DNA of 64,000 bases from an uncultured Mediterraneibacter sp. (GCA_944381935.1 CALWMN010000011.1:14030-78029), one strand, 5' to 3'; shown: positions 5,713-31,237, counted from the stretch's first letter. Notes: a model not told the origin generated them from the letters alone. Numbers and translations: made by a program.

Positions 5713-5765
5713 TTCTCCTTATCTGCTTATCATTGAAGATCAGCCATATTTTTTCCCGGCTTTCC

Positions 5766-6611: not shown

Positions 6612-6624
6612 GCAGAACCCTCCC

Positions 6625-12335: not shown

Positions 12336-12347
12336 TCTCTCTCCCTC

Positions 12348-16322: not shown

Positions 16323-17216
16323 TCACCATCGTTTTTCCTCGATCATTGCTTTGGTCTCCTGATACCGCTCCAGAAAGCTCTCATCCATATTCGTCACACA
16401 GATCAGGTACAAACAGTCAATAATCGAATACTGCGGTATATTTTCCGATCCCGGCTCATAGCAGGTTGACCGGTCCATGCTGGAGAAACTCCCATAGTTA
16501 AACCCGGTCAGCAGAGAGATCTCCGCCGCCCTGTCCACCGGGGACTCTTTCACACTGGTTATGGCGATCGTTTTCGCCCCGTTTTTGCGGGCGCGTTCCA
16601 GACATTCCGTAACCAGCGCAGATCCCCCCATATTGCTGATCCCCACGATCAAGTCATCCGGCTTTGCCATACAGACACCCGCTGCCATGCCATGATAATC
16701 GGCATAGGCAACACACATCACCCCGAGCCTTCTAAAGCGCATACAGGCACTCTGGGCAGCAAGATACGAATATCCCTCCCCCACAAAGAGCACCTGGCGT
16801 GCATTTAGAATAATACGCGCAACGTGTTCCATCAATTCATAATCCATCAGAGAAAGCGTGTCTTTGAGCATCTCCATCTCGCTTTCCAGGACATAATGGC
16901 AGACGCTCTTTGCATCTTTTCGATTGGGGAACCCTCCCGCAAATAAAAACGGCGGCTCAACTCCCTCTCCCTGATCCTCGCCCCTTCTCAGCGCATAGGC
17001 GTTCTGCATCTCCCTGTGAAATGATTTGTAATTCTCAAATCCCAGGTAATGTACAAAACGGGTAACTGTGGCATTGCTGACCCTGCTTTTCTGGGCCAGG
17101 GCCCCTATCGTATATCCGTTCTGGTTCGGCGTCCGTTCAAGCAACGCATCTGCAATCCTTTTCATGGCCGGATTCATGTGGGCGTATTTTGCTTTAATCT
17201 CTAAAATCAGATCCAT
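16323..17216 (-). CDS. MurR/RpiR-family transcriptional regulator
   Basis: N-terminal HTH VSNATVTRFVHYLGF; SIS domain FVGEGYS, GISNMG, IAITS; ATG 17216 follows AGGAAGG (ORF track start 17270). Confidence 0.9.
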   Translation of the reverse strand: MDLILEIKAKYAHMNPAMKRIADALLERTPNQNGYTIGALAQKSRVSNATVTRFVHYLGFENYKSFHREMQNAYALRRGEDQGEGVEPPFLFAGGFPNRKDAKSVCHYVLESEMEMLKDTLSLMDYELMEHVARIILNARQVLFVGEGYSYLAAQSACMRFRRLGVMCVAYADYHGMAAGVCMAKPDDLIVGISNMGGSALVTECLERARKNGAKTIAITSVKESPVDRAAEISLLTGFNYGSFSSMDRSTCYEPGSENIPQYSIIDCLYLICVTNMDESFLERYQETKAMIEEKRW

Positions 17217-17298
17217 ATCCTTCCTCACATTTTTATCTGTTCCCTGTTCCCAACACCTGCTCTGACGCAAAAATGCGTATCAGCATTAATACTTTTTT

Positions 17299-17494: not shown

Positions 17495-17523
17495 TTGACA
17501 AATTATTTTTATGTAAATATAAT
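17495..17523 (+). promoter_or_regulatory. Consensus sigma70 promoter for aldolase 2
   Basis: TTGACA-17 bp-TATAAT, then AAGGAGG. Confidence 0.85.
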
Positions 17524-17559: not shown

Positions 17560-18423
17560 ATGTTAATGAACATGAAGTCATTGCTTGAGGTCGCCAACGC
17601 AAATAATTTTGCCATTCCAGCATTTAACACGACCCATAACATGATCATGAGGGGAGTGCTGGAGGCAAGCGAGGAAATGCAGGCGCCCGTAATCATCGAG
17701 GTGCATCCGGACGAATTAGAATTTGCACGCCCGTCTTTCATCACCGCCCTTGTCGAAGAAGCCCACAAGGCATCTGTCCCCGTCTGCATCCATCTTGACC
17801 ACGGATCAACTATGGATCAGATCGTCAAGGCGATCCAGTGCGGGTATACATCTGTCATGATCGACGCATCCAGCCGTCCCCTGGAGGAAAACATCTCCAT
17901 CTGCAAAGAGGTGTGCCGCATCGCCCATGCGGTGGATGTATCTGTGGAAGGCGAGCTCGGGACCATCGGAACCACCGCACAGGACATGGATTCTACATCA
18001 AGCACGGAAATACACTATACACGGCCCGAAGAGGCAGTCCGCTTTGTAAAGGAAACGGGGGTGGATTCTCTCGCAGTCGCCATTGGCACCTGCCACGGCA
18101 TTTATCCTGCCGGGATGACCCCGACCCTGCAGCTGGACCTCCTAAAAGAAATCAAAGCTGCCGTCAAGATCCCCCTTGTCCTGCACGGAGGTTCCTCCAA
18201 CAAGGACGAAGAGATCGCCGCCGCTTCCCGGTCCGGAATCAACAAGATCAATATTTCAAGCGATATCAAAGACCCCTTCTACCAAACCTGCAGAAAGGTG
18301 CTGGAAGATCCCTATATCCGGGAACCGGGGGAGATCTATCCGCCATGCATTGACGTCATGAAAAAAGTCATCCGCCACAAATTCGACCTGCTCGGGACGA
18401 CCGGAAAGGCTGCTTTATACTGA
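17560..18423 (+). CDS. Class II ketose-bisphosphate aldolase
   Basis: PAFN, IHLDHG, VMIDAS, EGELG, AIGTCHG, LVLHGGS, KININISSD-like KINISSD; ATG 17560 follows GGAGG (ORF track start 17404 runs through AT-rich promoter DNA). Confidence 0.92.
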   Translation: MLMNMKSLLEVANANNFAIPAFNTTHNMIMRGVLEASEEMQAPVIIEVHPDELEFARPSFITALVEEAHKASVPVCIHLDHGSTMDQIVKAIQCGYTSVMIDASSRPLEENISICKEVCRIAHAVDVSVEGELGTIGTTAQDMDSTSSTEIHYTRPEEAVRFVKETGVDSLAVAIGTCHGIYPAGMTPTLQLDLLKEIKAAVKIPLVLHGGSSNKDEEIAAASRSGINKINISSDIKDPFYQTCRKVLEDPYIREPGEIYPPCIDVMKKVIRHKFDLLGTTGKAALY

Positions 18424-18446
18424 TTTTTACACTTTTCACAAAACAG

Positions 18447-18490
18447 GGGCAGGAACCCGCCCAAATCCGGGGTTCCTGCCCTGAGTTTTT
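18447..18490. terminator. Bidirectional intrinsic terminator
   Basis: 12-bp perfect arms GGGCAGGAACCC / GGGTTCCTGCCC, T tract downstream. Confidence 0.85.
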
Positions 18491-18496
18491 CCATGT

Positions 18497-19774
18497 TCAG
18501 TTTGATCCGCCGCTTTTTATAATCAGCAGTATATCCCGGTTAAATGACTGCATCGGGATTTTTATCCTCCCCCCTTCTCCCCGCACTTCAACCGGCTCCG
18601 TCTTTCTGTTTTCCAGGTCAATGCGCAGAGCTTTGCCGCTGCCCCGGTCCAGGTTCATCTTGATCTCCTTTGCATAAGGAGCATAGACCACGACTGTGCC
18701 CCCATCCTTTGTCCTCCCGCATCTGATCTGCGGGCTGCACCTTTCCAGCAATTCCTGGGCAGGCGTGATTCCGAACAGGTCGTGCTCTTCAAATATCTGT
18801 TTCGCGAAAGCGGCGTCTGATGCCCCGGGAAGCGCAAGCGCCTCCCTCCAGTAGAACGGTTGTCCGGCAAAGCTCTCCCCTTCAAAGACGTCCCCTTCCC
18901 TGTGCCAGGACCATATGCCATGAGCGCCGTACGCCACCCCTGCCGCCGCCCCCGACAAAAGGCTCTGCCAGATGGCTTTCCTGACGTCAAAAGCCCCGAA
19001 CCTCCCGTATCTGTCACCGTGCCCGTGCCCTTCATAGCAGGGTTCTGCATTGATCACGGGGCAGCGGGGTGCTCTGGCTGTGATCTTTTCTGCCAGCAGA
19101 CAGGCGTTTTGCTGTTCCTCAAGCCTGTGCCCCGACTGGTACGCATAAAAATCAATGCCCTCTTCCAGCAGGTCATCCGGCATCTCATATATCCCCGACG
19201 CCATGTGAATGGCAGCCAGAGCTTCCGGGCACTTCCGCCTGATAGCTTTCAAGGCTTTCCGGTAATAACGTGAGGATTCCTCCCCAAAGTCTGTGTCTCC
19301 TCCGATAAAATAAACCGGCTCAAAACGTTCAAAATATTCCACTACACTGTTGACGTGAGTTTCTATCATCTCATACGGGAGCCTGAAGCCTTCCCTCTTT
19401 TGCGACAGCCATGTTCCCGGCACACAGTCGCACCACAGGATAACGAGAACTGGCAGAAACCCATACTCCACCGCCTGTTCCAGTATTTTCTGTGCGTTTT
19501 GGAAATAGGCGTCATTGCGTTTCGTACAGTCAATCTTCCCATCCTCATCTACAGCATACGGGAAAGCGCACTCCCCGCTCTTGCTGCGGTCCCACTGCGG
19601 CAGGACATTCATCTGGAGCGCATTAAACCCCTGCCTTTTCCGGAAAGACAGATAATCCTCCCAGTCCTTTTGGTCTGCATTGGTAAAAGCGCTCCACACC
19701 GTATCCGCAAGATAGAAAAAATTTTTTCCTCCCCTCTTAAAGCAGTCCATCTGTTCTGATCGTTCCAGTCTCAT
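18497..19774 (-). CDS. DUF4038/apiosidase-like (GH140-like) glycoside hydrolase, cytoplasmic
   Basis: FFYLADTVW, RKRQGFNALQ, GGD, YQSGH, PVINAEPCYEG, GVAYGAHGIW; no signal peptide. Confidence 0.75.
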   Translation of the reverse strand: MRLERSEQMDCFKRGGKNFFYLADTVWSAFTNADQKDWEDYLSFRKRQGFNALQMNVLPQWDRSKSGECAFPYAVDEDGKIDCTKRNDAYFQNAQKILEQAVEYGFLPVLVILWCDCVPGTWLSQKREGFRLPYEMIETHVNSVVEYFERFEPVYFIGGDTDFGEESSRYYRKALKAIRRKCPEALAAIHMASGIYEMPDDLLEEGIDFYAYQSGHRLEEQQNACLLAEKITARAPRCPVINAEPCYEGHGHGDRYGRFGAFDVRKAIWQSLLSGAAAGVAYGAHGIWSWHREGDVFEGESFAGQPFYWREALALPGASDAAFAKQIFEEHDLFGITPAQELLERCSPQIRCGRTKDGGTVVVYAPYAKEIKMNLDRGSGKALRIDLENRKTEPVEVRGEGGRIKIPMQSFNRDILLIIKSGGSN

Positions 19775-19785
19775 TTACCCACTCC

Positions 19786-20799
19786 TTACTTTCCAAAACC
19801 TTCCACACATCGCAGCCATTCACGGACAATCTTGTCCTCAAAATTTTCCTTTTCCGATTCCCGAAACGAACCTCTTCTATCCTGGTATTCGATATATTCC
19901 CCGGCAGCGTCCTCCAGGGAATAGGTCCACTCAAATTCCGGGAACTCTCTTTGGAACTCCTCGATCGAAAAGAACAGATTAAACCTGCTTAAGATCGGAA
20001 GAATCTCCCCGATCTCCGGCATTTTTAGTGCCATCAGATGTTCAAACGGAATATGAACCAGACACGGCTTCTCCCCCAGCACACCGGCAAACAGCTCCAC
20101 ATACTGGTCATGCGTCATAGGGACAGGATGGCCGCAGTTATATATTTTCCCTACAGACTTAAGATGTCCAGCGAATTGCGCGATCATCCTCCCTGTGTTG
20201 TACGCGCTGCTGACATGGATCAGCGTATTTCCTCCTCCCGGCACCAGAACCGGTCTTCGGTTCTTCAGCCTTGATACCATCGATACGCCTCCGCTCCTGG
20301 ACAGGAAATCCAGCACGAACCCGGTGCCAAACGAATAGACCGGTCGGATAATGGTCAGAGGGAAACCCGTTTCTTCGCGAAAACCCAGCAAAACTTTTTC
20401 ACACTCCAGCTTCTTTTCGGCATACTCACAGTTCGGCTTACGTTTTTCATCATACTCCCGCATCGGCAGATGGCTGAGGGGATACCCGTAGACGTCGACA
20501 GTACTCAGGAAAATATATTGTTTCACCCTGCTGTTTAACAGCTCTGCCGTGCGCTTTGCCTGCTCCGGTTCAAAACAGACAAAGTCAATCACAACATCCG
20601 GCTGATACTCCTCTACCGCTGCCCTCAGGCACGGGATATCGTCCCGGTCCCCCCTGTAAAACACAACCTTCTCTTCCAGGTCTTTCCCGTCGCTCTTTGG
20701 CAGCGTAAAGACCGCAACTTTTTTCTTCTTTTCCAGAAGTTCCTCAATTGTACTTGTTGACAGATTGCCCGGACCTCCGAGCAAAAGCACTTTTTCCAC
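19786..20799 (-). CDS. NAD-dependent epimerase/dehydratase (extended SDR)
   Basis: LLGGPGNLS, FLSTVDVYG, YAEKK (YxxxK), IIRPVYSFG. Confidence 0.85.
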   Translation of the reverse strand: MEKVLLLGGPGNLSTSTIEELLEKKKKVAVFTLPKSDGKDLEEKVVFYRGDRDDIPCLRAAVEEYQPDVVIDFVCFEPEQAKRTAELLNSRVKQYIFLSTVDVYGYPLSHLPMREYDEKRKPNCEYAEKKLECEKVLLGFREETGFPLTIIRPVYSFGTGFVLDFLSRSGGVSMVSRLKNRRPVLVPGGGNTLIHVSSAYNTGRMIAQFAGHLKSVGKIYNCGHPVPMTHDQYVELFAGVLGEKPCLVHIPFEHLMALKMPEIGEILPILSRFNLFFSIEEFQREFPEFEWTYSLEDAAGEYIEYQDRRGSFRESEKENFEDKIVREWLRCVEGFGK

Positions 20800-20843
20800 T
20801 TCCGTTCCTCCCTTCTTATTTCACGCCGCAGCAACGCTCCCTT

Positions 20844-21692
20844 TCAGCCTTTCACCGCACCGGCCGTAAGTCCTTTTACAACCTGCTCCTGGAAAAGCGC
20901 ATAAATGATAAGCGTAGGAACAATCATAACTACAACGCCGGCCGCAATCATCCCCTGGTCACTGGAATATTGCCCTCTCAGGCTCAGGGTGACCAGGTTT
21001 AACGTCGTATTCTCCGTTCCATTTACCAGTATCATGGCAAAGAGAAACTCCTGCCATACATTCAGGAATACAAACATCCCAGCCGTCGCCATTGCGCTTT
21101 TGCTCAGCGGAAGCACAATGCGGAAATAAATGCTCCTAAGGGAACACCCGTCGATAACAGCCGCCTCCAATATCTCATCCGGGAGCGAGGTTTTCATGAA
21201 ATTTGTAATGATAAAAATTGCAAATGACAGATTGATCACAACATAAACCAGCAGCAGCCCCGGCTTAGTTCCGTTCAACCCCATATTCCTGATATCCACA
21301 AACAGCGGAATTATGATCGCCTGGATCGGAATCAGCATCCCGACCAGAAAGTAGGTCTGCAATGTTGACTTTGCCGCTATTTTTGCCAGATAAAAACTCA
21401 CCATCGATCCCAGCAGAAGAACAAAAATGAGCGTTCCTGCCGAATAGAACAGGCTGTTGAAAAAAGCTTTCGGCAAAATGGATATCGTCGTCAGTATGTG
21501 CTGGTAGTTTTCTACTATAAATGGATCGGGCCACTCAAACGGATGGACATATATCTGGCTGTTGTCCTTAAACGAATTCAACAGTGTCCATATAATCGGA
21601 AGAACCGAATACATCGCCAGAATCAGCAAAACCGCATGTTTCAAAATATTCCCTGTTTTTGCCCTCAATTTCCCCTTTTCCATATCCATCAC
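20844..21692 (-). CDS. Carbohydrate ABC transporter permease
   Basis: EAA loop EILEAAVIDGCS, LTAGAVKG end; true start may be ATG 21683. Confidence 0.92.
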   Translation of the reverse strand: MMDMEKGKLRAKTGNILKHAVLLILAMYSVLPIIWTLLNSFKDNSQIYVHPFEWPDPFIVENYQHILTTISILPKAFFNSLFYSAGTLIFVLLLGSMVSFYLAKIAAKSTLQTYFLVGMLIPIQAIIIPLFVDIRNMGLNGTKPGLLLVYVVINLSFAIFIITNFMKTSLPDEILEAAVIDGCSLRSIYFRIVLPLSKSAMATAGMFVFLNVWQEFLFAMILVNGTENTTLNLVTLSLRGQYSSDQGMIAAGVVVMIVPTLIIYALFQEQVVKGLTAGAVKG

Positions 21693-21700
21693 TCCTTACG

Positions 21701-22585
21701 CTAATCTTCTCTGTTCCTGAATCTCCGGACTCCGTTAAACAACACCGAAAACAGCAGCGCGAAGGACAGCACAATAATCGCGACAGCGCTTCCCTTCCCG
21801 AAGTTCAGTTTCTGAAACGACTCCTGATACAGGTAAACGCTCAGATAACTGGAACGTACTCCCGGTCCTCCCCAGGTCATCACGTAGGAATGTTCAAAAG
21901 ATTTAAACACATTGCTCGTCATCAGGATAATATTGGTAAACGTGATGTTCTTAACCATAGGGACCACAATATTGACAAACATTCTGACAGAGCTTGCCCC
22001 GTCTATCATCGCACTCTCCAGGACGTCGTCCGGGACCATCTGGATTCCCGCCAGGGAAATGATCGTTGTGATAGCGGTAGACTGGTAGACCATCGGAACC
22101 ATAACCGTAAACAATACAATGTTGGGATCCGAAAGCCAGTTCTGCCGAAGCTCTTCCAGCCCCAGAAAGGACAAGACGCTGTTCACTGGTCCAAAGTCCC
22201 CGTTAAAAACCAGGGTAAACATCAGCGAAACCGCAGACGCAGAAAGAATCACCGGAAGAAAGGCCACAAACCGGTAAACCTTAAACATTTTCCTCGTCCT
22301 GAAGATCAGATATGAAAATACAAGCCCAAGCGGCACCGAGGTGAGAAGGACTACGGCAAGCTGTTTTATCGTATTCATAATAACGATCCAGAAATCCGTA
22401 TCCCGCAGCAGGTTCCTGTAATTTTTAAACCCGGCAAACACAGGGGGCGTAATCGCATTCCAGTCGGTCAGTGAATAATAGAACGATATGGCAATTGAAA
22501 CAATAACAAAAACCGTATATAAAATCAGTGTGGGAACGACAAACCCCAAAAATGCCTTCCCTTTATGCTTTCTTAAATGTGACAT
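21701..22585 (-). CDS. Carbohydrate ABC transporter permease
   Basis: EAA loop DVLESAMIDGAS; ATG 22585 (ORF track start 22624). Confidence 0.92.
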   Translation of the reverse strand: MSHLRKHKGKAFLGFVVPTLILYTVFVIVSIAISFYYSLTDWNAITPPVFAGFKNYRNLLRDTDFWIVIMNTIKQLAVVLLTSVPLGLVFSYLIFRTRKMFKVYRFVAFLPVILSASAVSLMFTLVFNGDFGPVNSVLSFLGLEELRQNWLSDPNIVLFTVMVPMVYQSTAITTIISLAGIQMVPDDVLESAMIDGASSVRMFVNIVVPMVKNITFTNIILMTSNVFKSFEHSYVMTWGGPGVRSSYLSVYLYQESFQKLNFGKGSAVAIIVLSFALLFSVLFNGVRRFRNRED

Positions 22586-22669
22586 TTTCACACCCTCTTT
22601 ACCGGGGGACTGGATTTGCGGCATACCAGAAACCCAATCCCCGCCTTACTGCTTTCTTTCTTCCAACGC

Positions 22670-24013
22670 CTATCCCTGCTGGCTCTTATAGTCATCACAC
22701 ATCTTCTGGCATTTTTCTGTAAACTCATCTGCATTAATGGCTCCTGACCACAGCTCATCCAGATAAGACTGGTAATCAGCCTGAAGGGATGCCGCCGGCA
22801 GGTTCTGCCACACCATCGGAGAGGCTTCTGTCTGATGTTCCTCGTGATACTCCAGCGCCTTTTTCAGCATCGGGCTCTCAAGCCGGGAGAGATCCACCTG
22901 ATCCTGGATCGAGCTGTCAACCGATACCAGAAGCCCTTTTTTCGCACATTCAAGAATCAGGTCATGGCTGATGAGATCCAGCACTTTTATCATCGCCTCT
23001 TCCTTTTTCTCCATTGATTCCTGATTCACTGCATAACATTCATTTACCGTCCCCTGCATAAACGTAGAAGTATCGCGTTCCGCATCCGGAAGTTCTGGAA
23101 CCGGTATGATCACAGATTTTTCTACCATCTCATCCGAAATCCCCTCAAACGCAAAGCTGAAAGTATAGCACATCGCGGATAATCCTTCATTATAATACGC
23201 GATACTTGGATCCCAGTCTCCTGTCGCCGTGACATCGTCCGAGAACATCCCCTTATCCCTCATCTCCTGGCAGCGCTCAGCCGCTTTCACAAACGCTTCT
23301 GATGTAAAGTCCAGGTTTGTCGAGAGGTTCTCGATATCCGTTACACCGGCATTGTACTGGTTGATCAGCTCACTGTGCCAGAAATGGGACGGGTTCCCGC
23401 CTTTTGAGCCTATATTAGTAGGCGTGATCCCATTTTCCCTGAACACTTCACCGCAGTGAAGAAACTCTTCCCACGTTTCCGGATAATCCAGGTTATATTT
23501 TTCAAACAGCTCCGAGTTGCACATAAACACACCGACAGCCTTATATTTAGGAACAGCACACACAACATCATCCACCGACACTCCATCCAGGGTAGCCTGT
23601 GTATAATTGTCAAGGCTCACCTTCCCGCTCTTTGCAAAGTAGGACGATGACAGATCTCCCAGGATACCGCTGTTATAAAAATCAACGAGGGATCCCCTGC
23701 ATCCGAACTGCCAGATATCCGGTGTCTCTCCCGCGGCTATCCTGGTCGCGACAACGTCTCTGATCTCATCTCCCATAACCGCTTCATTTTCAATAATGAT
23801 ATCCGGGTTTTCTTCCATAAAATCGTCGAACATCTGCAGCGCGATATCCGATTCCTCGTTCGCCCCCTCACTCCAATGGCTCAAGATCTTGATCGTCACC
23901 TTCTCTCCGTCCCCACTGTCTGCAGAGCCGCCACCCGCGCCGCATCCGGCAAGCAGCGATACACACATAGCCGCCGCTAATGCTGCTGATAACATTCTTT
24001 TCCTTTTTTTCAT
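22670..24013 (-). CDS. Sugar ABC transporter substrate-binding lipoprotein
   Basis: Lipobox LLAGC, family 1 SBP-like sequence, upstream of permeases. Confidence 0.9.
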   Translation of the reverse strand: MKKRKRMLSAALAAAMCVSLLAGCGAGGGSADSGDGEKVTIKILSHWSEGANEESDIALQMFDDFMEENPDIIIENEAVMGDEIRDVVATRIAAGETPDIWQFGCRGSLVDFYNSGILGDLSSSYFAKSGKVSLDNYTQATLDGVSVDDVVCAVPKYKAVGVFMCNSELFEKYNLDYPETWEEFLHCGEVFRENGITPTNIGSKGGNPSHFWHSELINQYNAGVTDIENLSTNLDFTSEAFVKAAERCQEMRDKGMFSDDVTATGDWDPSIAYYNEGLSAMCYTFSFAFEGISDEMVEKSVIIPVPELPDAERDTSTFMQGTVNECYAVNQESMEKKEEAMIKVLDLISHDLILECAKKGLLVSVDSSIQDQVDLSRLESPMLKKALEYHEEHQTEASPMVWQNLPAASLQADYQSYLDELWSGAINADEFTEKCQKMCDDYKSQQG

Positions 24014-24087
24014 ACTGCACCTCCACTTTTTATAAATTTGTCTGCCGGATCTCTCTGTGAGATGCCGGCCTGTTGCTTTATGGCATA

Positions 24088-24116
24088 ATCATACATCACT
24101 TTGATACATTTGTCTA
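24088..24116 (-). promoter_or_regulatory. Promoter for the second ABC/hydrolase operon
   Basis: TAGACA-17 bp-TATGAT on the minus strand. Confidence 0.6.
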
Positions 24117-24159
24117 CATTTTTATTTTATGTTTTTGAAAATATTATTTTTATATTGTA

Positions 24160-24187
24160 TTGACATTTTTGCTTATTTGAATATAAT
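24160..24187 (+). promoter_or_regulatory. Promoter for the SIS-to-RpiR operon
   Basis: TTGACA-16 bp-TATAAT. Confidence 0.7.
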
Positions 24188-24316
24188 TAAGATAAATACA
24201 CAGTATTTTTTCGCGAAAAATCGGTATTTTTTACCTGTTTGTTTTCTTTTTATTAATCTTTTTATGAAAAATAATTTTTATTTTTATTTTAAATTTTTGA
24301 AAAGGAGTGTAGTTCT

Positions 24317-24928
24317 ATGGATAACGGACAAATTCAAAAGGAAATCATCCGGACCATTCAGGCGGAGGCCGGTTCCATTTCTGCCCTGACCAATTTTCTC
24401 AATATGGAAGATCTGGCAAAAGCCGTGACCCTTATCGGGAACTGCAAAGGGCGGATCATTCTTTCAGGATGCGGGACCTCAGCTATGGCAGCAAGAAAAA
24501 TCGCCCATTCTCTGTGCTGCATTGAACGTCCCTCCGCCTTTTTAATCCCTTCGGACGCCGTTCACGGAGCGCTGGGACTTCTTCAGCCAGATGATATCCT
24601 GATCCTCATCAGCAAAGGCGGAAATACACGAGAGCTTGTGGAGCTTGTTCCCGCGTGCAGGGCAAAGGGCGCTTATCTCATCTCCGTAACGGAAAACAGG
24701 GGTTCCAGGCTGGGAAGCCTTGCCGACCTGTGCCTCTGCGTAAAGGTAGATTCCGAGCCCTGCCCCTTTAATATGCTGGCAACCGCCAGCACACTTGCCG
24801 TCATTTCTGTTTTTGACGCGATCTGCATTGCCCTAATGCATTTCACCAACTACACAAAAGAACAATTCGCAGTCATTCACCCTGAAGGTGCGGTCGGAGA
24901 ACGCCTGACGGGAAGAAAGGAAGGATAA
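24317..24928 (+). CDS. SIS-domain sugar-phosphate isomerase (KdsD/GutQ-like, no CBS domains)
   Basis: GCGTS..ARKIA, AVHGALG, ISKGGNT, CPFNMLATAS, FAVIHPEG. Confidence 0.85.
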   Translation: MDNGQIQKEIIRTIQAEAGSISALTNFLNMEDLAKAVTLIGNCKGRIILSGCGTSAMAARKIAHSLCCIERPSAFLIPSDAVHGALGLLQPDDILILISKGGNTRELVELVPACRAKGAYLISVTENRGSRLGSLADLCLCVKVDSEPCPFNMLATASTLAVISVFDAICIALMHFTNYTKEQFAVIHPEGAVGERLTGRKEG

Positions 24929-24932
24929 TGCT

Positions 24933-25982
24933 ATGGCTCTTATGAAAGCTGCAGTTTTTAAAGACATCGGACGCATAGAGACAGAAGGACGCCCCATTCC
25001 CGCCTGCCCGGATGACGGCGTGCTGATCAAAATATATGCCTGCGGGATCTGCGGAGGCGATGTCCGTAACTACCACAACGGGTTAAAGGGCGGGATTAAG
25101 AATCAGATCATGGGCCATGAGATCGCAGGCCAGATTGTCAAAACCGGGGAAAATGTCACTCGTTTCCAACCCGGCGACCGGGTTGCCCTCGCCCCTGACG
25201 TAAGCTGCGGGGAATGTTGGTACTGCAAGCGGGGAATGGTCAATCTCTGTTCTTCCCACAAAATGCTGGGAACCCATTTCCCCGGGGGATACGCACAGTA
25301 TATCGCGCTTCCCGGTGAGGTCCTATCCCACGGGTTCATCGAGCCGATCCCGGAAGGCATGAGCTATGACCACGCCGCTTTTGCCGAGACCGCTTCCGCA
25401 GTGATCGCATGCCAAGACTACAATAACGTTTCTCTGGGAGACCGGGTCGTCATTATCGGGGACGGACCTGTGGGATGTCTCCACGTCGAAGTGGCAAGAG
25501 CGAGGGGAGCATCCAAAATCATCCTGCTCGGGCGCGAAAAGCTGGAACTTGCAAGGGCCTTTCACCCCGATCACCTGATCGACAATTCCAATCCCGGGGA
25601 AGTGGTACAAAAGGTCCGCGAACTCTGCGGGGGAATCGGCGCTGACATCGTGATCTGTGCCGTTCCCACTGTGGCCATCCAGCAGCAGGCGATCGATATG
25701 GTACGCAAGCGCGGAAGGGTTGTGATCTATGGGGGTGTCCCAAAGAAGAACGAGATCAGTTCTCTTAATTCTAATTCTATCCATTACAACGAGATCATGG
25801 TGCTAGGAGCATTTTCCTACCCCTCAACCGGTCTTTCCGACGCCCTTTGTGCGATCGCTTCCGGCAAGATCACAGCCGACAAATATCTCACGGCAAAGGT
25901 GTCTCTCGAAGATGTGGCCAAAGGCATGGAAATGATAGAAAACGGCGGCGCGCTGAAAGTCCTCATAGATCCGTGGCTGTAA
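24933..25982 (+). CDS. Zn-dependent polyol/sugar dehydrogenase (MDR family)
   Basis: CGICGGD, GHEIAG, structural Zn CGECWYCKRGMVNLC, GDGPVG. Confidence 0.92.
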   Translation: MALMKAAVFKDIGRIETEGRPIPACPDDGVLIKIYACGICGGDVRNYHNGLKGGIKNQIMGHEIAGQIVKTGENVTRFQPGDRVALAPDVSCGECWYCKRGMVNLCSSHKMLGTHFPGGYAQYIALPGEVLSHGFIEPIPEGMSYDHAAFAETASAVIACQDYNNVSLGDRVVIIGDGPVGCLHVEVARARGASKIILLGREKLELARAFHPDHLIDNSNPGEVVQKVRELCGGIGADIVICAVPTVAIQQQAIDMVRKRGRVVIYGGVPKKNEISSLNSNSIHYNEIMVLGAFSYPSTGLSDALCAIASGKITADKYLTAKVSLEDVAKGMEMIENGGALKVLIDPWL

Positions 25983-26007
25983 AACATTATGGAAGGAGTG
26001 TTTAGAC

Positions 26008-27303
26008 ATGTACGAAATTGACAGTAAACTGGAGGCACTGGCAGAAAAAAACGAACCGATACGGGTAAGCCTGGTCGGCGCCGGCCAGATGGGAAAGGAT
26101 ATCGTCTCCCAGATATCCATGATGAAGGGTATGGAGTGCGATATCGTGGTGGACGTCTCGACGGATATCGCCCTGGATGCTTACACGCAGGCACACTACG
26201 ATGGGGAGATCGTCGTAGCAGATACCACGGCCAAAGCAGAAAAAGCCATCGACGAAGGCAAGAAAGTCATCACCACAAATTATGAAGTTGCCGTAAGCGC
26301 GCGGCAGGTCCAGTCCGTTATCGACGCCACCGGCTCTCCTGAAATGGGGGCGCGCATTACTGCCAAATGCATCTTTTACAAAAAACATATTGTGATGATG
26401 AACGTGGAGTGCGATATCACGATCGGACCGATCTTAAGGAAGCTGTGCGAACAGGCAGGGATCGTATATTCCCTTACCGCCGGGGACGAACCGGGTTCCA
26501 TCATAGAGGTCTACCGCTTTGCCAAAGCCCTGGGGTTCGAGGTAGTAGCTGCCGGGAAAGGCAAGAATAATCCCCTGGACTTTTCTGCGAACCCCGGGCA
26601 GAAAGAATGGAAGGAAAAAGCTGCCGCCCGGGATATGAACCCGCGCATGCTTGTGGAATTTGTGGACGGTTCCAAGACAATGATCGAGATGTGCGCGGTG
26701 TCCAACGCCACCGGACTGATCCCGGATGTGCGCGGCATGCACGGTCCCCGCTGCAATGTCAAAGACCTGACAAAGGTATTCTCTTTGAAAGAGCAGGGCG
26801 GGATCCTGGAAAAGAAGGGGGTTGTGGATTTTGGCATCGGGGACATCAATCCGGGCGTCTTCGTGATTGTCACCACCGACAACCAGCGGATCATTGACGG
26901 CCTGGTTCAGCGTGATATGGGAAACGGACCCAACTACCTCCTCTACAGGCCTTATCATCTGTGTTCCATCGAGACTCCCATAACCGCTGCACAGGCTGTC
27001 CTCTACGGGGAATCAACCGCCCATCCGATGGATCACCTGACGTCCGAGTGTATCACCATAGCGAAAAAGGACCTGCGCGCCGGAGAAGTGCTGGATTCCA
27101 TCGGGGAATACTGCTACCGGGCGTCCATCGAGACCGCGCCCGTCGCAAAAGCCGGAAATATGCTTCCGGTCGGACTGGCAAAGGGAGCTGTCATGAAAAC
27201 GGACGTCCCCGCCGATACCGTAATCACGTATGACATGGTTGAATTAAATGACAGTTCTGTTCTCCTGCAGCTTCGCAGGATGCAGGACCAGCTTATGGAT
27301 TAA
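26008..27303 (+). CDS. NAD(P)-dependent oxidoreductase with C-terminal SAF domain (COG4091-like)
   Basis: GAGQMG Rossmann motif, IDATG, MMNVECD, AGDEPG, DGSKT; C-terminal AKKDLRAGEVLD...PVGLA SAF-like domain. Confidence 0.8.
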   Translation: MYEIDSKLEALAEKNEPIRVSLVGAGQMGKDIVSQISMMKGMECDIVVDVSTDIALDAYTQAHYDGEIVVADTTAKAEKAIDEGKKVITTNYEVAVSARQVQSVIDATGSPEMGARITAKCIFYKKHIVMMNVECDITIGPILRKLCEQAGIVYSLTAGDEPGSIIEVYRFAKALGFEVVAAGKGKNNPLDFSANPGQKEWKEKAAARDMNPRMLVEFVDGSKTMIEMCAVSNATGLIPDVRGMHGPRCNVKDLTKVFSLKEQGGILEKKGVVDFGIGDINPGVFVIVTTDNQRIIDGLVQRDMGNGPNYLLYRPYHLCSIETPITAAQAVLYGESTAHPMDHLTSECITIAKKDLRAGEVLDSIGEYCYRASIETAPVAKAGNMLPVGLAKGAVMKTDVPADTVITYDMVELNDSSVLLQLRRMQDQLMD

Positions 27304-27321
27304 AAACAAGGAGGTTTTATT

Positions 27322-28737
27322 ATGAATCACAAAATCATTCTCGGATATGCTCCCACACGGCGTCGTATTTTCAGTGTGGAGGACGCCATAAAATACAAGA
27401 AGATCATAGCAGAAAAGCTGACCTCCCTTCAGGTTGAATTTATAGACATAGAAGACATCAATCCGGAAGGTCTGTTAAGATGTGCCGACGATGTAGAACC
27501 CGTGATCCGGAAATTTAAAGCCGCGAACATTGACGCTTTATTTATCCCCCACTGCAACTTCGGCTCTGAGCACAGCTGCGGCAAAGTGGCAAGAGCTTTG
27601 GGCGTCCCTGTTCTCCTCTGGGGACCGAGAGACGAGGCGCCCCTGCCGGACGGGAGCCGTTTAAGGGACACACAGTGCGGTCTTTTCGCCACCGGGAAGG
27701 TCCTGCGCCGCATGCAGGTTCCATTCACCTATCTCCCTAACTGCCGCGTTGAAGATCCGTCCTTTGAAAAAGACCTTCTTAATTTCATAGCCGCAGCCAA
27801 TGTGGTCAAAGAGTTCCGCCGGGGACGCATCCTGCAGATCGACACCCGACCCGCAGACTTCTGGACAATGATGGTAAACGAGGGGGAGCTTCTGGAGAAA
27901 TTCGGCATCCAGATCTTCCCGATCACCATGACTGAATTTGCCGGCCGCGTAGTAAAGCTGGAAGCCTCTGACAATGCGGAAGTACAAAGCACCATAGAAT
28001 ATATCCACGAAAACATGGAGGTATGCATCCCCGAAGAATCTGTTTTAAGAGTCGCCGCCATGAAGACTGCCATGAAACAGTATGCGCTGGAGAACGGATG
28101 CAACGCCATCGCGATACAGTGCTGGGACGCCCTGCAGCAGGCGCTGCACGTCATGCCCTGCTGTGCCAATGCGCTTCTGACAGACGAGGGGATCCCGGTT
28201 GTCTGTGAAACGGATATCCACGGCGCCATCACCGCAATCATGGTACAGGCAGCCGGCATGGGGAAGACGTCCAGCTTTTTTGTAGACTGGTCGATCCGAC
28301 ATCCTGAAAATGACAATGGGGAACTGCTTCAGCACTGTGGGCCATGGCCGGTCTCCTTGGCGAAAGAAAAGCCACAGCTGACACACCCGTTCGCTTTTGA
28401 AGAACACTGCCCCGGCTCTCTGGTGGCAGAGCTGAAACCAGGCGAAATATCAATCCTGCGGTTTGACGGCGACAACGGGCAGTACAGTATGCTGATGGGA
28501 ACCGCCAGGACGATTTCCGGTCCGAAGACAAGCGGAACATATGCCTGGATCGAGGTTCCCAACTGGCCCAAAGTGGAATCCATGATCGTAAAAGGTCCAT
28601 ATGTCCATCACGCAGTCGGGATACACGGCAATGTCCTTCCCATTATCTACGAGGCATTGACTTATCTTCCCGGCATCAGGAGCGATTTTTATGACGAGGC
28701 ACAGGAAAAAGAAACCAAAAATTTCTATTATAATTAA
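27322..28737 (+). CDS. L-fucose/L-arabinose isomerase-family protein
   Basis: HCNFGSE, LWGPRDE, RDTQCG, AIQCW, CETDIHGA, HCG, YVHH. Confidence 0.8.
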   Translation: MNHKIILGYAPTRRRIFSVEDAIKYKKIIAEKLTSLQVEFIDIEDINPEGLLRCADDVEPVIRKFKAANIDALFIPHCNFGSEHSCGKVARALGVPVLLWGPRDEAPLPDGSRLRDTQCGLFATGKVLRRMQVPFTYLPNCRVEDPSFEKDLLNFIAAANVVKEFRRGRILQIDTRPADFWTMMVNEGELLEKFGIQIFPITMTEFAGRVVKLEASDNAEVQSTIEYIHENMEVCIPEESVLRVAAMKTAMKQYALENGCNAIAIQCWDALQQALHVMPCCANALLTDEGIPVVCETDIHGAITAIMVQAAGMGKTSSFFVDWSIRHPENDNGELLQHCGPWPVSLAKEKPQLTHPFAFEEHCPGSLVAELKPGEISILRFDGDNGQYSMLMGTARTISGPKTSGTYAWIEVPNWPKVESMIVKGPYVHHAVGIHGNVLPIIYEALTYLPGIRSDFYDEAQEKETKNFYYN

Positions 28738-30257
28738 TGATTAAAGGGGGATGCACATTGTTACTGGGTATTGATATTGGAACGACAGGCGTCAAAGCGG
28801 CAGTCTTTGACAGCAGCGGGGAGAGAAAAGGCTATGCCTTCCGTGAATATGGCGTCTCCTGTCCCCGCCACGGGTATGCGGAGCAGGACGCAGAAGAGAT
28901 CTGGAACTATACAAAAGCTGTGATTAGAGAATCCTGCGCCGAATCCGGCCCCCGTGTCACTGCCCTCTCCCTGTCTGTCCAGGGGGATGCCGCCATTCCC
29001 CTGGATAAGGACTGGAACCCCCTGGCTTACGCACAGCTGGGAATGGACTACAGAGGCACGGAAGAGGCCCGCTGGTTCACGGACACTTTCGGTGATGAGG
29101 AGCTGTTTTACCGGACGGGAATGCGCCCGCACCCCATGAATTTCCTGGTGAAAGTCCTCTGGTTTAAGAACCATCAGCCAGAGTTATACAAAAAAACATA
29201 TAAATTTACCACATATGCAGATTTCATACTGGGGAAACTGGGAACCGGCATTGCTGTCATTGATGAAACGATGGCAAGCCGCACTATGGCATTTAATCTG
29301 AAGGAAAAAACATGGGACCGGGAGCTTCTGGGCGCCTGCGGAATCCCTGCCGGAAAGCTCTCCGCACCCGTCCCTTCTGGAACGAGGACAGGAAAAATCG
29401 ATCCCGGGACTGCCCGGGAACTGGGGATAAACCCGGACGCCATTCTGGTGGCGGGAGGACATGACCAGACCTGCGCGGCGGTTGGGGCAGGCATCATGGA
29501 AGAGAACCTGGCCCTGGATTCTCACGGGACCGCAGAGGTGATCTCCACGGCATTTCGCACACCGAAGCTGGAGCGGACAATGTTTGAAAGCTATTATCCC
29601 TGTTATCTGCATGCAGTGCCGGATATGTATTTTACCTTCTCCTTAAACCATACCGGAGGGGTATTGCTGAAATGGTTCGTGGAAAATTTCTGCCACCAGG
29701 ATATCCTGTCAGCCAGAGCGCGTTCAGAGCAGGTATACACATATGTATTCGACCACTTTTCCGAAAAGCCGTCCCCTCTGATCGTACTGCCATATTTCAA
29801 CGGAAGCGGCACTCCCACATGCAATCTGGACTTAAAGGGCGCTTTCCTGGGACTGACCCTGTCAACCAGCCGGTACGACATCGCCAAGGCGATCGTCGAA
29901 TCCCTTTCGTACGAATTAAAGGTAAATCTTGAAACAATGAGAAAAGCCGGAATACACATCCGGGAACTCCGCTCCGTCGGAGGAGGCGCCCGCTCTCCCG
30001 TCGGCCTGCAGAACAAAGCCGACATCCTGGGGATCCCGGTTTCCACTTTGAAAATCCGGGAAGCCGCCTGCCTGGGAGCGGCGATCCTGGCAGGCGCCGG
30101 GACAGGTGTATATGACACTGTGCAGCAGGCTGCCTCTGTCATAAAGACTGACCGGACCTTTTTCCCTGATCCGGGTGCCCATGACGCCTACTTTGAAAAA
30201 TATTCCATTTATTCAAAATTGTATGATATAATGAAACCATTCTTAGAAACAATATAA
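28737..30257 (+). CDS. FGGY-family pentulose/hexulose kinase (xylulokinase-like)
   Basis: GIDIGTTGVK, LSVQGD, GGHDQTCA, SHGT, LPYFNGSGTP, GGGARS, EAACLGAA; true start may be TTG 28758. Confidence 0.9.
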   Translation: MIKGGCTLLLGIDIGTTGVKAAVFDSSGERKGYAFREYGVSCPRHGYAEQDAEEIWNYTKAVIRESCAESGPRVTALSLSVQGDAAIPLDKDWNPLAYAQLGMDYRGTEEARWFTDTFGDEELFYRTGMRPHPMNFLVKVLWFKNHQPELYKKTYKFTTYADFILGKLGTGIAVIDETMASRTMAFNLKEKTWDRELLGACGIPAGKLSAPVPSGTRTGKIDPGTARELGINPDAILVAGGHDQTCAAVGAGIMEENLALDSHGTAEVISTAFRTPKLERTMFESYYPCYLHAVPDMYFTFSLNHTGGVLLKWFVENFCHQDILSARARSEQVYTYVFDHFSEKPSPLIVLPYFNGSGTPTCNLDLKGAFLGLTLSTSRYDIAKAIVESLSYELKVNLETMRKAGIHIRELRSVGGGARSPVGLQNKADILGIPVSTLKIREAACLGAAILAGAGTGVYDTVQQAASVIKTDRTFFPDPGAHDAYFEKYSIYSKLYDIMKPFLETI

Positions 30258-30279
30258 TTTAGAAGAAAAGGGGAGTTAT

Positions 30280-31158
30280 ATGGAAAAGCTTTTAGATCAC
30301 TATGATCCGCATATATCTCACAAATTTTTAATACGTGTTCTCTCCATATATGACACCCTGAAATCAGCAGAAAAAAGAGGAGCAGATACTATTTTGAGCG
30401 CCCCGAAATACGCGTCAAACGCCACGATTACCGAGATTGCCCGAAAAGCATCCTGCAGCGATGCAACTCTGGTCCGGCTGGCAAAAAAGCTGGGGTATTC
30501 GGGGTATCCCGAGTTAAAAGGGGCAATCCTTTCATCCGATGCGGAATCTCAGGAGCTCCCTTATGCGGAGCTGCAGCCTGATGATTCTCCCATGAATGTC
30601 GTAGACAAGGTCTTTTCCACCGCAAAGCAGGCACTTTCGGATACCCAGACACTGTTGGAAAAGGACGCATACGAAAAAGCGCTGAAACAGGTGATACATG
30701 CAGGCCGTATCTTTTTTATCGGCGCCGGAGACGCCTATATCGCAGCTTATTCTGCATTTCTCAAATTTTCAAGGATAGGACGCAACGTCGGCTGCTCCAA
30801 AGATATAGACGTGCAGCTGATCGAAGGCTCAAAGCTTACCGAACAGGATCTGCTGGTTGTCATCTCTCACTCAGGGCGCACGGAATCTTTATACAATGTC
30901 ATTAAGACAGCCAAGCTCAACAATGCAAACGTGCTGGCGATTACCAACTATCCTTTGTCGCCGATCGCGAAAATGGCTGATGTTGTCCTTCTGACAGCGG
31001 CGTTTACCCCGAATATCTATCACGAGATCATGGCAAAGCGCATCCCGGAATTATGCGTAATCGAAACGCTGTATATCAACACTTTGCTGCATGGCGATCC
31101 CGACAGCCAGAAGATCCTGTCCCAGTCCAACCAGTCTCTGTCTATCAACAAGCTGTAA
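30280..31158 (+). CDS. MurR/RpiR-family transcriptional regulator
   Basis: CSDATLVRLAKKLGYSGY HTH; SIS FIGAGDA, ISHSGRT, AITNY. Confidence 0.92.
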   Translation: MEKLLDHYDPHISHKFLIRVLSIYDTLKSAEKRGADTILSAPKYASNATITEIARKASCSDATLVRLAKKLGYSGYPELKGAILSSDAESQELPYAELQPDDSPMNVVDKVFSTAKQALSDTQTLLEKDAYEKALKQVIHAGRIFFIGAGDAYIAAYSAFLKFSRIGRNVGCSKDIDVQLIEGSKLTEQDLLVVISHSGRTESLYNVIKTAKLNNANVLAITNYPLSPIAKMADVVLLTAAFTPNIYHEIMAKRIPELCVIETLYINTLLHGDPDSQKILSQSNQSLSINKL

Positions 31159-31183: not shown

Positions 31184-31237
31184 GTCCCCTCAAAAAGCAA
31201 AACTGCCGTAAACGGCAGTCGCTTCCCTGAGGGGGCC
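31184..31237. terminator. Composite bidirectional terminator at the right boundary of the sugar island
   Basis: Core ACTGCCGT-AA-ACGGCAGT with outer CCCCTCA/TGAGGGG arms. Confidence 0.75.

Follow-up and report, generated by a model that had tools for sequence, protein, structure and literature searches.

The locus occupies positions 17560-31158 of the window (the whole 64-kb stretch of DNA analyzed). Its genes are arranged in three transcription units, and all those listed in a preliminary description of this DNA were confirmed in place by a Pfam search. The features are the following.

17560-18423, + strand: class II aldolase (PF01116, 310 bits), monocistronic
18497-19774, - strand: GH140-like (DUF4038/apiosidase-family) glycosidase (PF13204, 260 bits), final gene of the import operon
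19786-20799, - strand: extended SDR, NAD-dependent epimerase/dehydratase family (PF01370, 58.6 bits)
20844-21692, - strand: CUT1-type ABC permease 1 (PF00528)
21701-22624, - strand: CUT1-type ABC permease 2 (PF00528)
22670-24013, - strand: solute-binding lipoprotein (PF01547 and PF13416; lipobox LLAGC)
24014-24316, no strand: divergent control region (two promoters; 24-nt motif present twice)
24317-24928, + strand: SIS isomerase, SIS-only, KpsF-like (PF01380; TIGR00393 KpsF/GutQ, 145 bits)
24933-25982, + strand: Zn-dehydrogenase (ADH_N and ADH_zinc_N)
26008-27303, + strand: DXR-II/DRL-family oxidoreductase (PF21135, DRL_cat, 219 bits, and SAF)
27322-28737, + strand: FucI/AraA-like isomerase (Pfam below cut-off; NCBIfam SftI, 1.4e-35)
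28737-30257, + strand: FGGY kinase, XylB-like (FGGY_N and FGGY_C; TIGR01312, 274 bits, below cut-off)
30280-31158, + strand: RpiR-family regulator (PF01418, HTH_6, and PF01380, SIS), final gene of the catabolic operon

The close spacing of the genes (8-45 nt), the divergent promoters and the terminators found at 18447-18483 and 31201-31236 are consistent with two divergent operons and a monocistronic aldolase gene. One operon encodes the SDR, the cytoplasmic GH140-like glycosidase and a CUT1 ABC importer which depends on the lipoprotein; divergent to it runs an RpiR-controlled operon corresponding to a widely conserved module. The region between them hosts a perfect promoter on the + strand (TTGACA-16-TATAAT, 24160-24187), a second one on the - strand (TAGACA-17-TATGAT, 24116-24088), and a 24-nt direct repeat (24118-24141 and 24280-24303) around TTTTTGAAAA; the repeated motif is a candidate RpiR operator.

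The lack of transketolase pointed out in the preliminary description holds across the 64-kb window, where no AptA, AptB or other transketolase homologue was found. No gene of the locus reaches the cut-off of an NCBIfam equivalog, and the set does not map one-to-one onto a described pathway, a result in line with the earlier view of an uncharacterized pathway for a sugar, associated with an apiosidase-like hydrolase.

Glycosidase, SDR and importer

The hydrolase had been assigned to the DUF4038/GH140 type, and the HMM score agrees: PF13204 scores 260.3 bits, the cut-off being 26.5, and the match spans positions 10-319 of the 320 in the profile. No other PF13204 gene resides in the genome. The closest solved structure is 8t9w, labeled 'Apiosidase' (1.6e-30, 110 bits, about 29% identity), while the match to BT1012, the GH140 beta-D-apiofuranosidase of B. 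thetaiotaomicron (PDB 3KZS/5MSY; PMC4032388), amounts to 39 bits only. The PF13204 catalytic domain is shared with both BT1012 and 8T9W, and the equivalents of the BT1012 catalytic residues Asp187 and Glu284 are kept as D160 and E244, which are invariant across 20 members of the subfamily. In contrast to BT1012, the window enzyme is cytoplasmic, having no signal peptide, is about 425 aa long, and gives no PF12904 match in a Pfam search, its C-terminal 90 residues still aligning with 8t9w. BT1012 works on RG-II in the periplasm, whereas the window enzyme would act on small glycosides after import.

Homologues of the SDR (27-44% identity) recur in four DRL loci and five loci of the GH140 subfamily, sometimes next to the DRL or Zn-dehydrogenase gene. 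Permease homologues (42-54% identity) flank GH140-like genes in four loci (L080, L117, L156 and L161). The solute-binding lipoprotein, whose N-terminus reads MKKRKRMLSAALAAAMCVSLLAGC and includes a lipobox, is predicted to belong to a glycoside/oligosaccharide importer.

The catabolic operon and its DXR-II relative

By similarity, the product of gene 26008-27303 is a DXR-II/DRL-family enzyme. The earlier label of 'SAF-domain oxidoreductase' was correct as to the SAF domain and missed the family, which is evident from a 383-bit match to Brucella DRL (PDB 3upy/3upl; for 3upy E = 1.3e-113, residues 8-430). The DXR-II architecture, made up of NAD-binding, DRL catalytic (PF21135) and SAF domains, is present, and family and domains (PF21135 and SAF) are shared with the Brucella abortus enzyme (3UPL, 3UPY; Sangari et al. 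2010; Carretero-Paulet et al. 2013, PMC3847144). Seven residues which bind fosmidomycin and separate DXR-II from DLO1/DLO2 were checked (G121, K191, K193, T229, H250, R320 and V351). Six are identical, the phosphate-anchoring K191, K193 and T229 included, and V351 is replaced by Thr; the six are kept in 46/46 members of the clade, Thr at V351 in 38/46. In the tree, the DRLs of sugar operons form a monophyletic clade, sister to Rhizobiales DRLs. Clade-specific substitutions, set against aligned Rhizobiales and Terrarubrum DRLs, and in several cases also against Brucella, are Ala to C135, Asp to Q301, Arg to Q329, Val to T345, Val/Cys to C348 and Gly to D403.

The enzyme does not fill the role of the cell's DXR. 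Unlike its Brucella counterpart, it is encoded in an RpiR-controlled catabolic operon of a genome with a canonical DXR (PF02670, 146.7 bits, contig 3); as canonical DXR is found also in two further module-bearing genomes (G148 and G155), the DRL enzyme is not needed for isoprenoids. It is the most plausible stand-in for the C-C chemistry of transketolase. That it would carry out a skeletal rearrangement is suggested by family membership, and it could equally act on MEP/DXP, because the DXR-II signature residues are kept.

As to the other products of the operon, the SIS isomerase matches PDB 3fxa with 235 bits. The Zn-dehydrogenase, whose solved relatives are sorbitol, xylitol and L-arabinitol dehydrogenases and a ketose reductase, is by homology of the ketose-reductase/polyol-dehydrogenase type. 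The match of the FucI-like isomerase to SftI is far below the equivalog cut-off. The FGGY kinase is 23% identical to AplK of E. coli SE15 (99 bits), the corresponding figures for the kinases of the Listeria and Monoglobus clusters described below being 36% and 291-321 bits; on these scores it is XylB-like, and not an AplK orthologue.

Gene neighborhoods and a probable link to apiose

A comparison of neighborhoods, advised in the preliminary description, was run on 47 DRL loci of at least 8 kb and on 51 metagenome loci carrying the GH140 subfamily. The module SIS / Zn-dehydrogenase / DRL / (FucI-like isomerase) / FGGY kinase / RpiR recurs in the 47 loci, in Lachnospiraceae, Oscillospiraceae, Synergistaceae and Treponema, and because it is kept there the arrangement of its genes in the window is not a matter of chance. 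Isolates with the module include Muricomes intestini DSM 29489, Blautia schinkii DSM 10518 and Massiliimalia massiliensis. Zn-dehydrogenase genes are found in 45 loci, SIS in 44, FGGY in 40, RpiR in 32, and the FucI-like isomerase in 23. About half of the loci thus lack the latter, and a xylose-isomerase-like TIM-barrel gene is found instead in L037, L098 and a DRL-bearing metagenome locus (L161). An M24-like hydrolase (14 loci), and AldII (9) with a second FGGY kinase (17), are also recurrent; neither an aldolase nor a thiamine enzyme is conserved with the module in the 47 loci.

About a quarter of the DRL loci (11/47, tblastn) have a PF13204 gene no more than 10 kb away, one further locus carrying a DUF5060-type relative, and in L086 the PF13204 gene is inside the DRL operon. 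Any PF13204 gene was found in 13 of 401 Bacillota genomes (3%). AplK-like and AptA/AptB-like genes accompany the GH140 subfamily in 12 of the 51 metagenome loci, DRL in three, an ApnL-like gene in one; orthologues of the FucI-like isomerase are found in 10 metagenome loci, all among those 12. Clusters of Listeria and Monoglobus feature, in this order, an isomerase, a split transketolase (45% identical to AptA), a kinase (36% identical to AplK) and DUF4038/DUF5060 genes. The window isomerase is 48-57% identical to isomerases found with AplK/AptAB homologues, and 56-57% to the one placed ahead of these transketolase and kinase genes in the two genera; the window glycosidase and the DUF4038 protein from the AplK/AptAB cluster of Listeria share 43.5% identity. 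In locus L090, genes for a Gfo/Idh/MocA oxidoreductase, an ApnL-like lactonase (2.6e-76) and a KARI-N-like protein are in line with DRL, SIS and GH140; ApnL-like genes were detected in two related loci only, L090 and L151. The D-apionate lactonase profile NF049900 had no match in the window genome, and none in the control genomes either.

AplK, AptA and AptB function in growth on apiose, according to PMC13001218, citing Carter 2018. In B. thetaiotaomicron, the breakdown of RG-II sets D-apiose free (bioRxiv 10.64898/2026.03.13.711244), so this substrate exists in guts. The preliminary description had, as its second option, a new specificity of the GH140-like enzyme, which it may have; the genes neighboring its subfamily are apiose-pathway genes, and point to the known apiosidase specificity. 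It is well supported that glycosidase subfamily and FucI-like isomerase make up the same 'front end' found elsewhere with the characterized AplK/AptA/AptB genes; as both adjoin homologues of the latter, the front end is taken to be apiose-specific. The earlier idea of a branched sugar holds, narrowed to D-apiose, an assignment which draws on gene neighborhoods. The kinase/transketolase back end appears to be replaced here by FGGY kinase, Zn-dehydrogenase, DRL and SIS.

Proposed route and alternatives

The reading we favor, with moderate confidence, is that plant glycosides containing apiose are imported and degraded at this locus, by a transketolase-free route relying on the DXR-II relative. 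D-apiose would be freed in the cytoplasm by the GH140-like glycosidase and turned by the FucI-like isomerase into the achiral ketose apulose, which the sorbitol-dehydrogenase-like Zn enzyme would reduce with NADH to 2-C-hydroxymethyl-erythritol, a branched pentitol and apiitol isomer. The XylB-like FGGY kinase would phosphorylate the primary hydroxyl adjoining the secondary carbinol, giving the hydroxymethyl analogue of methylerythritol 4-phosphate; reduction and phosphorylation may occur in either order, and the Zn enzyme may act on phosphate forms. The DXR-II-type enzyme, working in reverse, would then carry out an NAD(P)+ oxidation followed by a retro-aldol/aldol skeletal rearrangement, yielding a linear pentulose 5-phosphate; in the simplest case this would be D-xylulose 5-phosphate, and it would enter the pentose phosphate pathway. 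The reaction would be of the type catalyzed by Brucella DRL, reversed, on a substrate having CH2OH where MEP has CH3. If true, the route would use one ATP, be redox-neutral, lose no carbon, and need no C-C cleavage enzyme. D-apiitol phosphorylated at the former C1 has a configuration opposite to that of MEP, and the scheme therefore assumes that achiral apulose is reduced to the other epimer. The near-universal SIS isomerase, the SDR, the M24-like hydrolase, AldII and the second FGGY kinase have no step in the scheme.

In the literature searched, a DXR-II-type apiose route is undescribed; the host belongs to the gut Clostridia. The non-oxidative D-apiose pathway (ApsI, AplK, AptA/AptB; Carter et al. 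2018, Nat Chem Biol 14:696; MetaCyc PWY-8089), shown to be functional in E. coli ST131 (PMC13001218), would share with the proposed one the presumed substrate and the first step, D-apiose being turned into apulose and a kinase of the FGGY family following. The two differ in that the window lacks AptA/AptB, has a kinase which is not AplK-type (23% identity), and adds three conserved enzymes, the Zn-dehydrogenase, DRL and SIS. They differ also in the importer, CUT1 for glycosides in the window and CUT2 for the monosaccharide in the transketolase pathway, and in the product, an intact C5 phosphate as proposed here against xylulose-5-P and DHAP formed by C2 transfer. With the oxidative routes (ApsD/ApnL/ApnO/RLP; Carter 2018; Watanabe et al. 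2026, PMC13753588), of which no ApnL homologue was found in the window genome, the proposed one would share the logic of the D-apionate oxidoisomerase ApnO, by which a single protein oxidizes a branched apiose-derived compound with NAD and, coupled to this, shifts a carbon substituent in it. Yet ApnO is KARI-like and acts on a sugar acid, the window enzyme DXR-II-like and presumably active on a phosphorylated polyol.

Apiose glycosides might be handled at the locus with DRL being an ordinary polyol- or sugar-phosphate dehydrogenase, free of any rearrangement, and the skeleton left to other enzymes, such as a chromosomal transketolase with activity on apulose phosphate, or the neighboring aldolase. 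DRL genes of Listeria and Ligilactobacillus head gut-type PTS operons, in the place of sorbitol-6-P dehydrogenase, non-DXR 'DLO' relatives have been described by Carretero-Paulet et al. (PMC3847144), and AplK-like genes are found together with the DRL module in L097 and L099, a mix suggesting that one back end does not simply stand in for the other. We nevertheless regard this as unlikely. The window clade keeps all residues separating DXR-II from DLO bar V351, and is sister to Rhizobiales DRLs, not to the group lacking His250; the window has no transketolase, its kinase is not AplK-like, and the aldolase does not recur with the module.

The low similarity of the hydrolase to proven apiosidases, and the resemblance of the SIS/Zn-dehydrogenase pair to pentitol-phosphate modules, would fit a GH140-like subfamily with another glycone, and some other rare pentose, tetrose or polyol degraded by kinase, dehydrogenase and isomerases, as in the erythritol/threitol pathways. 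Such routes, made up of kinase, dehydrogenase and isomerases only, are known; PMC13753588 cites Huang et al. 2015 for them. A sugar other than apiose is rather improbable, in that one sampled locus in four has this hydrolase subfamily and isomerase clustered with homologues of AplK/AptA/AptB, an ApnL-like lactonase is alongside in two loci, and both BT1012 catalytic residues are kept.

We consider very unlikely a role of the module in the degradation or salvage of 2-C-methyl-D-erythritol or 1-deoxy-D-xylulose, with the GH140-like enzyme freeing the polyol from a glycoside, the kinase forming MEP or DXP, and the DXR-II enzyme interconverting the two. The signature residues, V351 excepted, would suit this chemistry, and in plasmids of Rhizobiales and Priestia, DRL directly precedes acetoin-dehydrogenase-like E1/E2/E3 genes, with a polyol PTS or ABC importer and a kinase, loci which fit a conversion of MEP through DXP to acetyl-CoA and GAP. 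In contrast, none of the 47 window-clade loci has a conserved DXP-cleaving enzyme, neither the FucI-like aldose isomerase nor the ketose reductase would have a role if the substrate were a polyol, isomerase and GH140 subfamily accompany AplK/AptA/AptB apiose genes, and the genome makes its own MEP via canonical DXR.

The aldolase-based route put forward as one option in the preliminary description, with the class II aldolase next door (17560-18423) working together with isomerase and FGGY kinase to split the ketose phosphate of a rare or branched sugar, is hardly credible: PF01116 genes lie near more distant DRL paralogues (L038, L051 and L052) and in a Rhizobium plasmid locus, but within 10 kb of 0/47 orthologous DRL loci and 1/51 GH140-subfamily loci. 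Because of this absence near the DRL loci, and of its own promoter (a perfect consensus, 17495-17523) and terminator (18447-18483), the aldolase, of the FBP/tagatose-bisP type, is probably an adjacent gene and not part of the system. It scores 389 bits with NCBIfam PRK08185, below the cut-off of 405, is convergent with the import operon, and adjoins a different RpiR gene, belonging to the upstream island.

Gene content and transcription units

Gene identities were drawn from the ORF listing and from Pfam/NCBIfam scans of the window. All the genes named in the preliminary description are present, at the coordinates listed here.

17560-18423, plus strand: class II aldolase, true start at 17560, with its own perfect consensus promoter (sigma-70) upstream
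18447-18483: terminator
18497-19774, minus strand: PF13204 'apiosidase-like' protein of 425 aa, last gene of the import unit
between the hydrolase and lipoprotein genes, minus strand: two CUT1 permeases, then an extended SDR
22670-24013, minus strand: solute-binding lipoprotein, first gene of the import unit, lipobox LLAGC
24116-24088: divergent promoter
24118-24141 and 24280-24303: 24-nt direct repeat around TTTTTGAAAA in the divergent promoter region, candidate RpiR operator
24160-24187: perfect promoter, TTGACA-16-TATAAT
24208-24219: perfect palindrome TTTTCGCGAAAA in the divergent promoter region, candidate RpiR operator
24317-31158, plus strand: SIS-only KpsF-like isomerase, Zn-dehydrogenase, DRL_cat+SAF oxidoreductase, FucI-like isomerase, FGGY kinase and RpiR
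31201-31236: terminator

Genes in the minus-strand unit are separated by 8-45 nt, and these gaps, together with the promoters and terminators, fit two divergent operons and a monocistronic aldolase. The aldolase had already been described as monocistronic, in agreement with its separate perfect consensus promoter and the terminator at 18447-18483. No signal peptide was found in the 425-aa PF13204 protein. The absence of transketolase, noticed earlier at the locus, extends to the whole 64-kb window, where no homologue was detected.

The DXR-II-family gene and the spread of the module

The gene initially read as a SAF-domain oxidoreductase (26008-27303, plus strand) is there, but the reading was too shallow. 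The protein matches over its full length the Brucella abortus DRL/DXR-II enzyme (PDB 3upy/3upl; E = 1e-113), and is a member of the DRL/DXR-II family (DXP reductoisomerase-like). Residues separating DXR-II from non-DXR relatives have been defined by Carretero-Paulet et al. (PMC3847144). When these and the fosmidomycin anchors are mapped on the window DRL, Gly121, Lys191, Lys193, Thr229, His250 and Arg320 are conserved, and Val351 is replaced by Thr. A canonical DXR is encoded elsewhere in the genome, and the DRL gene is therefore not needed for isoprenoid synthesis. Firmicutes carrying DXR-II beside DXR-I, or devoid of any MEP pathway, are on record, and this distribution is unexplained (PMC3847144). 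In the tree, 46 sugar-operon DRL sequences form one clade, sister to Rhizobiales DRLs. A second group, set apart from this clade, includes the genes of Listeria and Ligilactobacillus as well as the paralogues of about 50% identity; many of these paralogues have lost His250.

Close relatives seldom carry the DRL gene: none of 36 same-genus genomes yielded an orthologue, and two of them host only distant homologues (27-30% identity). Across the phylum, DRL genes were found in 33 of 401 sampled genomes, mostly as paralogues of about 50% identity. In the loci hosting such paralogues (L039-L054), His250 is changed to Ile in 10 out of 18 sequences, and some genes lie near PF01116 aldolases and Zn-dehydrogenases; canonical DXR is missing in four of the five genomes tested (G102, G343, G289, G418, G421).

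Species-representative genomes were scanned with a pattern query, the alignment of the three best DRL sequences, and 53 DRL loci (57-83% identity) were retrieved. Hosts are Lachnospiraceae (Muricomes, Faecalicatena, Dorea, Blautia, Eisenbergiella), Oscillospiraceae, Christensenella, Massiliimalia, Synergistaceae and Treponema. Conservation was counted in the 47 loci that are 8 kb or longer, by mapping the window proteins onto them and by clustering all their ORFs.

Gene content of the 47 DRL loci. Metagenome and MAG loci are mutually related, and counts, here and in the GH140-subfamily loci below, do not equal independent events.
Zn-dehydrogenase: 45
SIS: 44
FGGY kinase: 40
RpiR: 32
FucI-like isomerase: 23
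second XylB-like FGGY: 17
M24 'pita-bread' protein: 14
GH140-like gene: 11
OtnC/FucA/AraD-like class II aldolase-fold protein: 9
PF01116 aldolase: 0

A monosaccharide-type CUT2 ABC system is found in 24 DRL loci, and no C-C-cleaving enzyme is conserved with the module in the 47 loci. The M24 (creatinase/prolidase-fold) protein, which gives weak peptidase-family scores, resides in or beside the module (L059, 16587-17681; L077, 12013-13125; 12 other loci). In L077 it holds the position of the isomerase, a place taken in four other loci by a PF04199 cyclase-type hydrolase. One DRL locus, L105 from an uncultured Clostridiaceae MAG, has a ribonucleotide reductase large subunit with a LAGLIDADG intein (4094-7513) just upstream of the module.

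Association with apiose genes

Three lines of evidence make D-apiose the likely substrate of the locus. PF13204 (GH140) is rare, being found in 13 of 401 Bacillota genomes. The genome analyzed has one copy, adjoining its sole DRL gene, and PF13204 lies within 10 kb of DRL in about a quarter of the DRL loci; it sits inside the DRL operon in L086, and is present in two copies each in L080, L093 and L099. The catalytic Asp187 and Glu284 of the GH140 apiosidase BT1012 correspond to D160 and E244 in the window hydrolase, invariant across its subfamily, and the closest solved relative of this protein is the entry 8t9w, named 'Apiosidase'.

For the reciprocal search, the cytoplasmic 425-aa GH140 subfamily was aligned and used as the query; it yielded 80 metagenome loci, of which the 51 with a length of 8 kb or more were counted. 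Homologues of E. coli AplK (32-41%) and of AptA/AptB (43-49% and 35-42%) are found in 12 of the 51 loci. An orthologue of the FucI-like isomerase (48-57% identical) is found in 10 loci, all among these 12. DRL was detected in three loci, an ApnL-like lactonase in one. AplK and AptA/AptB, kinase and split transketolase, are the characterised non-oxidative apiose enzymes, and their E. coli cluster allows growth on apiose (PMC13001218). This neighbourhood evidence indicates that the front end of the window locus, from import through hydrolysis to isomerisation, is shared with clusters of known apiose genes, whereas their kinase/transketolase back end is replaced.

In Listeria monocytogenes NCTC7974 (L197, 4004-13086) a cluster is made up of LacI, isomerase (56%), TK-N (45% to AptA), TK-C, kinase (36% to AplK), PTS and a DUF4038 protein 43.5% identical to the window hydrolase. 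This core recurs in Monoglobus pectinilyticus (L196, 8799-16229), there accompanied by a CUT2 importer and an apiosidase-like gene of the DUF5060 type. Both clusters, one from a food-borne pathogen and the other from a pectin specialist, probably encode the transketolase apiose route plus a cytoplasmic apiosidase. In a further DRL locus (L090, 8314-14216) a Gfo/Idh/MocA oxidoreductase, an ApnL-like D-apionate lactonase (2.6e-76, under the equivalog cut-off) and a KARI-N-like gene are in line with DRL, SIS, RpiR and GH140-like genes. The KARI-N-like gene (12066-12922) is possibly a frameshifted ApnO-like gene. In L151, too, these three genes are in line with DRL-module and GH140-like genes. Both loci would combine an oxidative and a DRL route.

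No homologue of the FucI-like isomerase was found in E. coli SE15. CUT2 binding proteins of related loci had 4ry0/5ibq as top solved structures, which scored no better than ribose-binding proteins. Neither the window kinase nor the second FGGY kinases are AplK orthologues, identity being 22-25%.

Putative route and alternatives

From family memberships, operon structure and conserved neighbourhoods, all directly observed, we infer the reaction steps and all specificities as follows. An imported apioside would be cut by the hydrolase in the cytoplasm, releasing D-apiose, and the FucI-like isomerase would convert this sugar to apulose, which is achiral. The Zn enzyme, related among solved structures to sorbitol, xylitol and arabinitol dehydrogenases and to a ketose reductase, would reduce the ketone of apulose. 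The XylB-like kinase would add phosphate onto the primary hydroxyl beside the new secondary carbinol, giving the CH2OH analogue of methylerythritol 4-phosphate. The DXR-II enzyme, working in reverse, would oxidize and rearrange this compound to a 2-pentulose 5-phosphate. As DXP is 1-deoxy-xylulose-5-P, the product would be D-xylulose 5-phosphate if the MEP-like configuration is kept. The balance tips slightly in favor of a rearrangement carried out by the DXR-II-type enzyme.

The scheme would account for the absence of any conserved C-C cleavage enzyme, for the retained phosphate-anchoring residues of DXR-II, and for the presence of a reductase and an oxidising enzyme in one operon, i.e. a redox-neutral route. 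Left unaccounted for are the near-universal SIS isomerase (58% for the window protein against PDB 3fxa), the SDR, the M24-like protein and the second kinase/AldII pair, as well as the AplK-like genes found together with the DRL module in L097 and L099.

Apiose is a component of RG-II in the cell walls of all higher plants, and more than a thousand plant glycosides contain it. To our knowledge, its consumers among the Firmicutes, and the routes they use, have been described only in part. Bacteroides sets apiose free in the gut (bioRxiv 10.64898/2026.03.13.711244). Published routes, as summarised by Watanabe et al. (PMC13753588), are one transketolase route and three oxidative ones via the KARI-like ApnO; none includes a DXR-II-type enzyme, in contrast to the route proposed here, of which no description was found in the literature searched. 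The window adds a compact case, apioside front end and DRL back end in one divergent operon pair, and the reciprocal neighbourhood test tying the front end to AplK/AptAB. If true, the proposed route would be a fifth apiose pathway and a one-enzyme interconversion of branched and linear pentose phosphates. It would also give the DXR-II family a physiological role, which could explain members in DXR-bearing or MEP-pathway-free bacteria (PMC3847144). The module is found in cultured strains and D-apiose can be bought, which makes the route open to direct testing.

The DRL-family enzyme could alternatively be a plain polyol-phosphate dehydrogenase, as DRL-family genes head gut (glucitol-type) PTS operons in L. 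monocytogenes (L114) and on a Ligilactobacillus salivarius megaplasmid (L115), in the place expected for sorbitol-6-P dehydrogenase. In the L. salivarius operon, fsa and tkt lie downstream.

The window DRL could also act on MEP/DXP itself. Plasmids of Rhizobium sophoriradicis (pCC511_1, L110), S. meliloti (pRM41A, L112), Terrarubrum (L113) and Priestia (L111) carry DRL directly followed by acetoin-dehydrogenase-like E1alpha/E1beta/E2 genes (plus E3 and lipA), alongside a SorC regulator and a gut-type polyol PTS, or an ABC system and a sugar kinase. This order fits a catabolism of methylerythritol via MEP and DXP to acetyl-CoA and GAP, a route for which no description was found in the literature searched. 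The window clade, however, lacks a DXP-cleaving enzyme of this kind, and its aldose isomerase and ketose reductase would be superfluous for a polyol substrate. We tentatively suggest that the DXR-II family may be catabolic at root, linearising branched C5 carbohydrate phosphates. Gut and soil anaerobes would use it in a fifth, carbon-conserving, transketolase-independent D-apiose pathway (apiose, apulose, hydroxymethyl-erythritol phosphate, xylulose-5-P), Rhizobiales and Bacilli in the conversion of methylerythritol via DXP to acetyl-CoA and GAP, the isoprenoid 'DXR-like' activity being possibly a side or secondary use.

The aldolase-based route considered in the preliminary description fails on conservation, PF01116 being found in none of the 47 DRL loci, and the aldolase was rejected as a pathway member. 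A second RpiR gene (16323-17270) is divergent from the aldolase gene (17560-18423), and both genes are probably part of the glycyl-radical-enzyme sugar island upstream, and not of the apiose locus.
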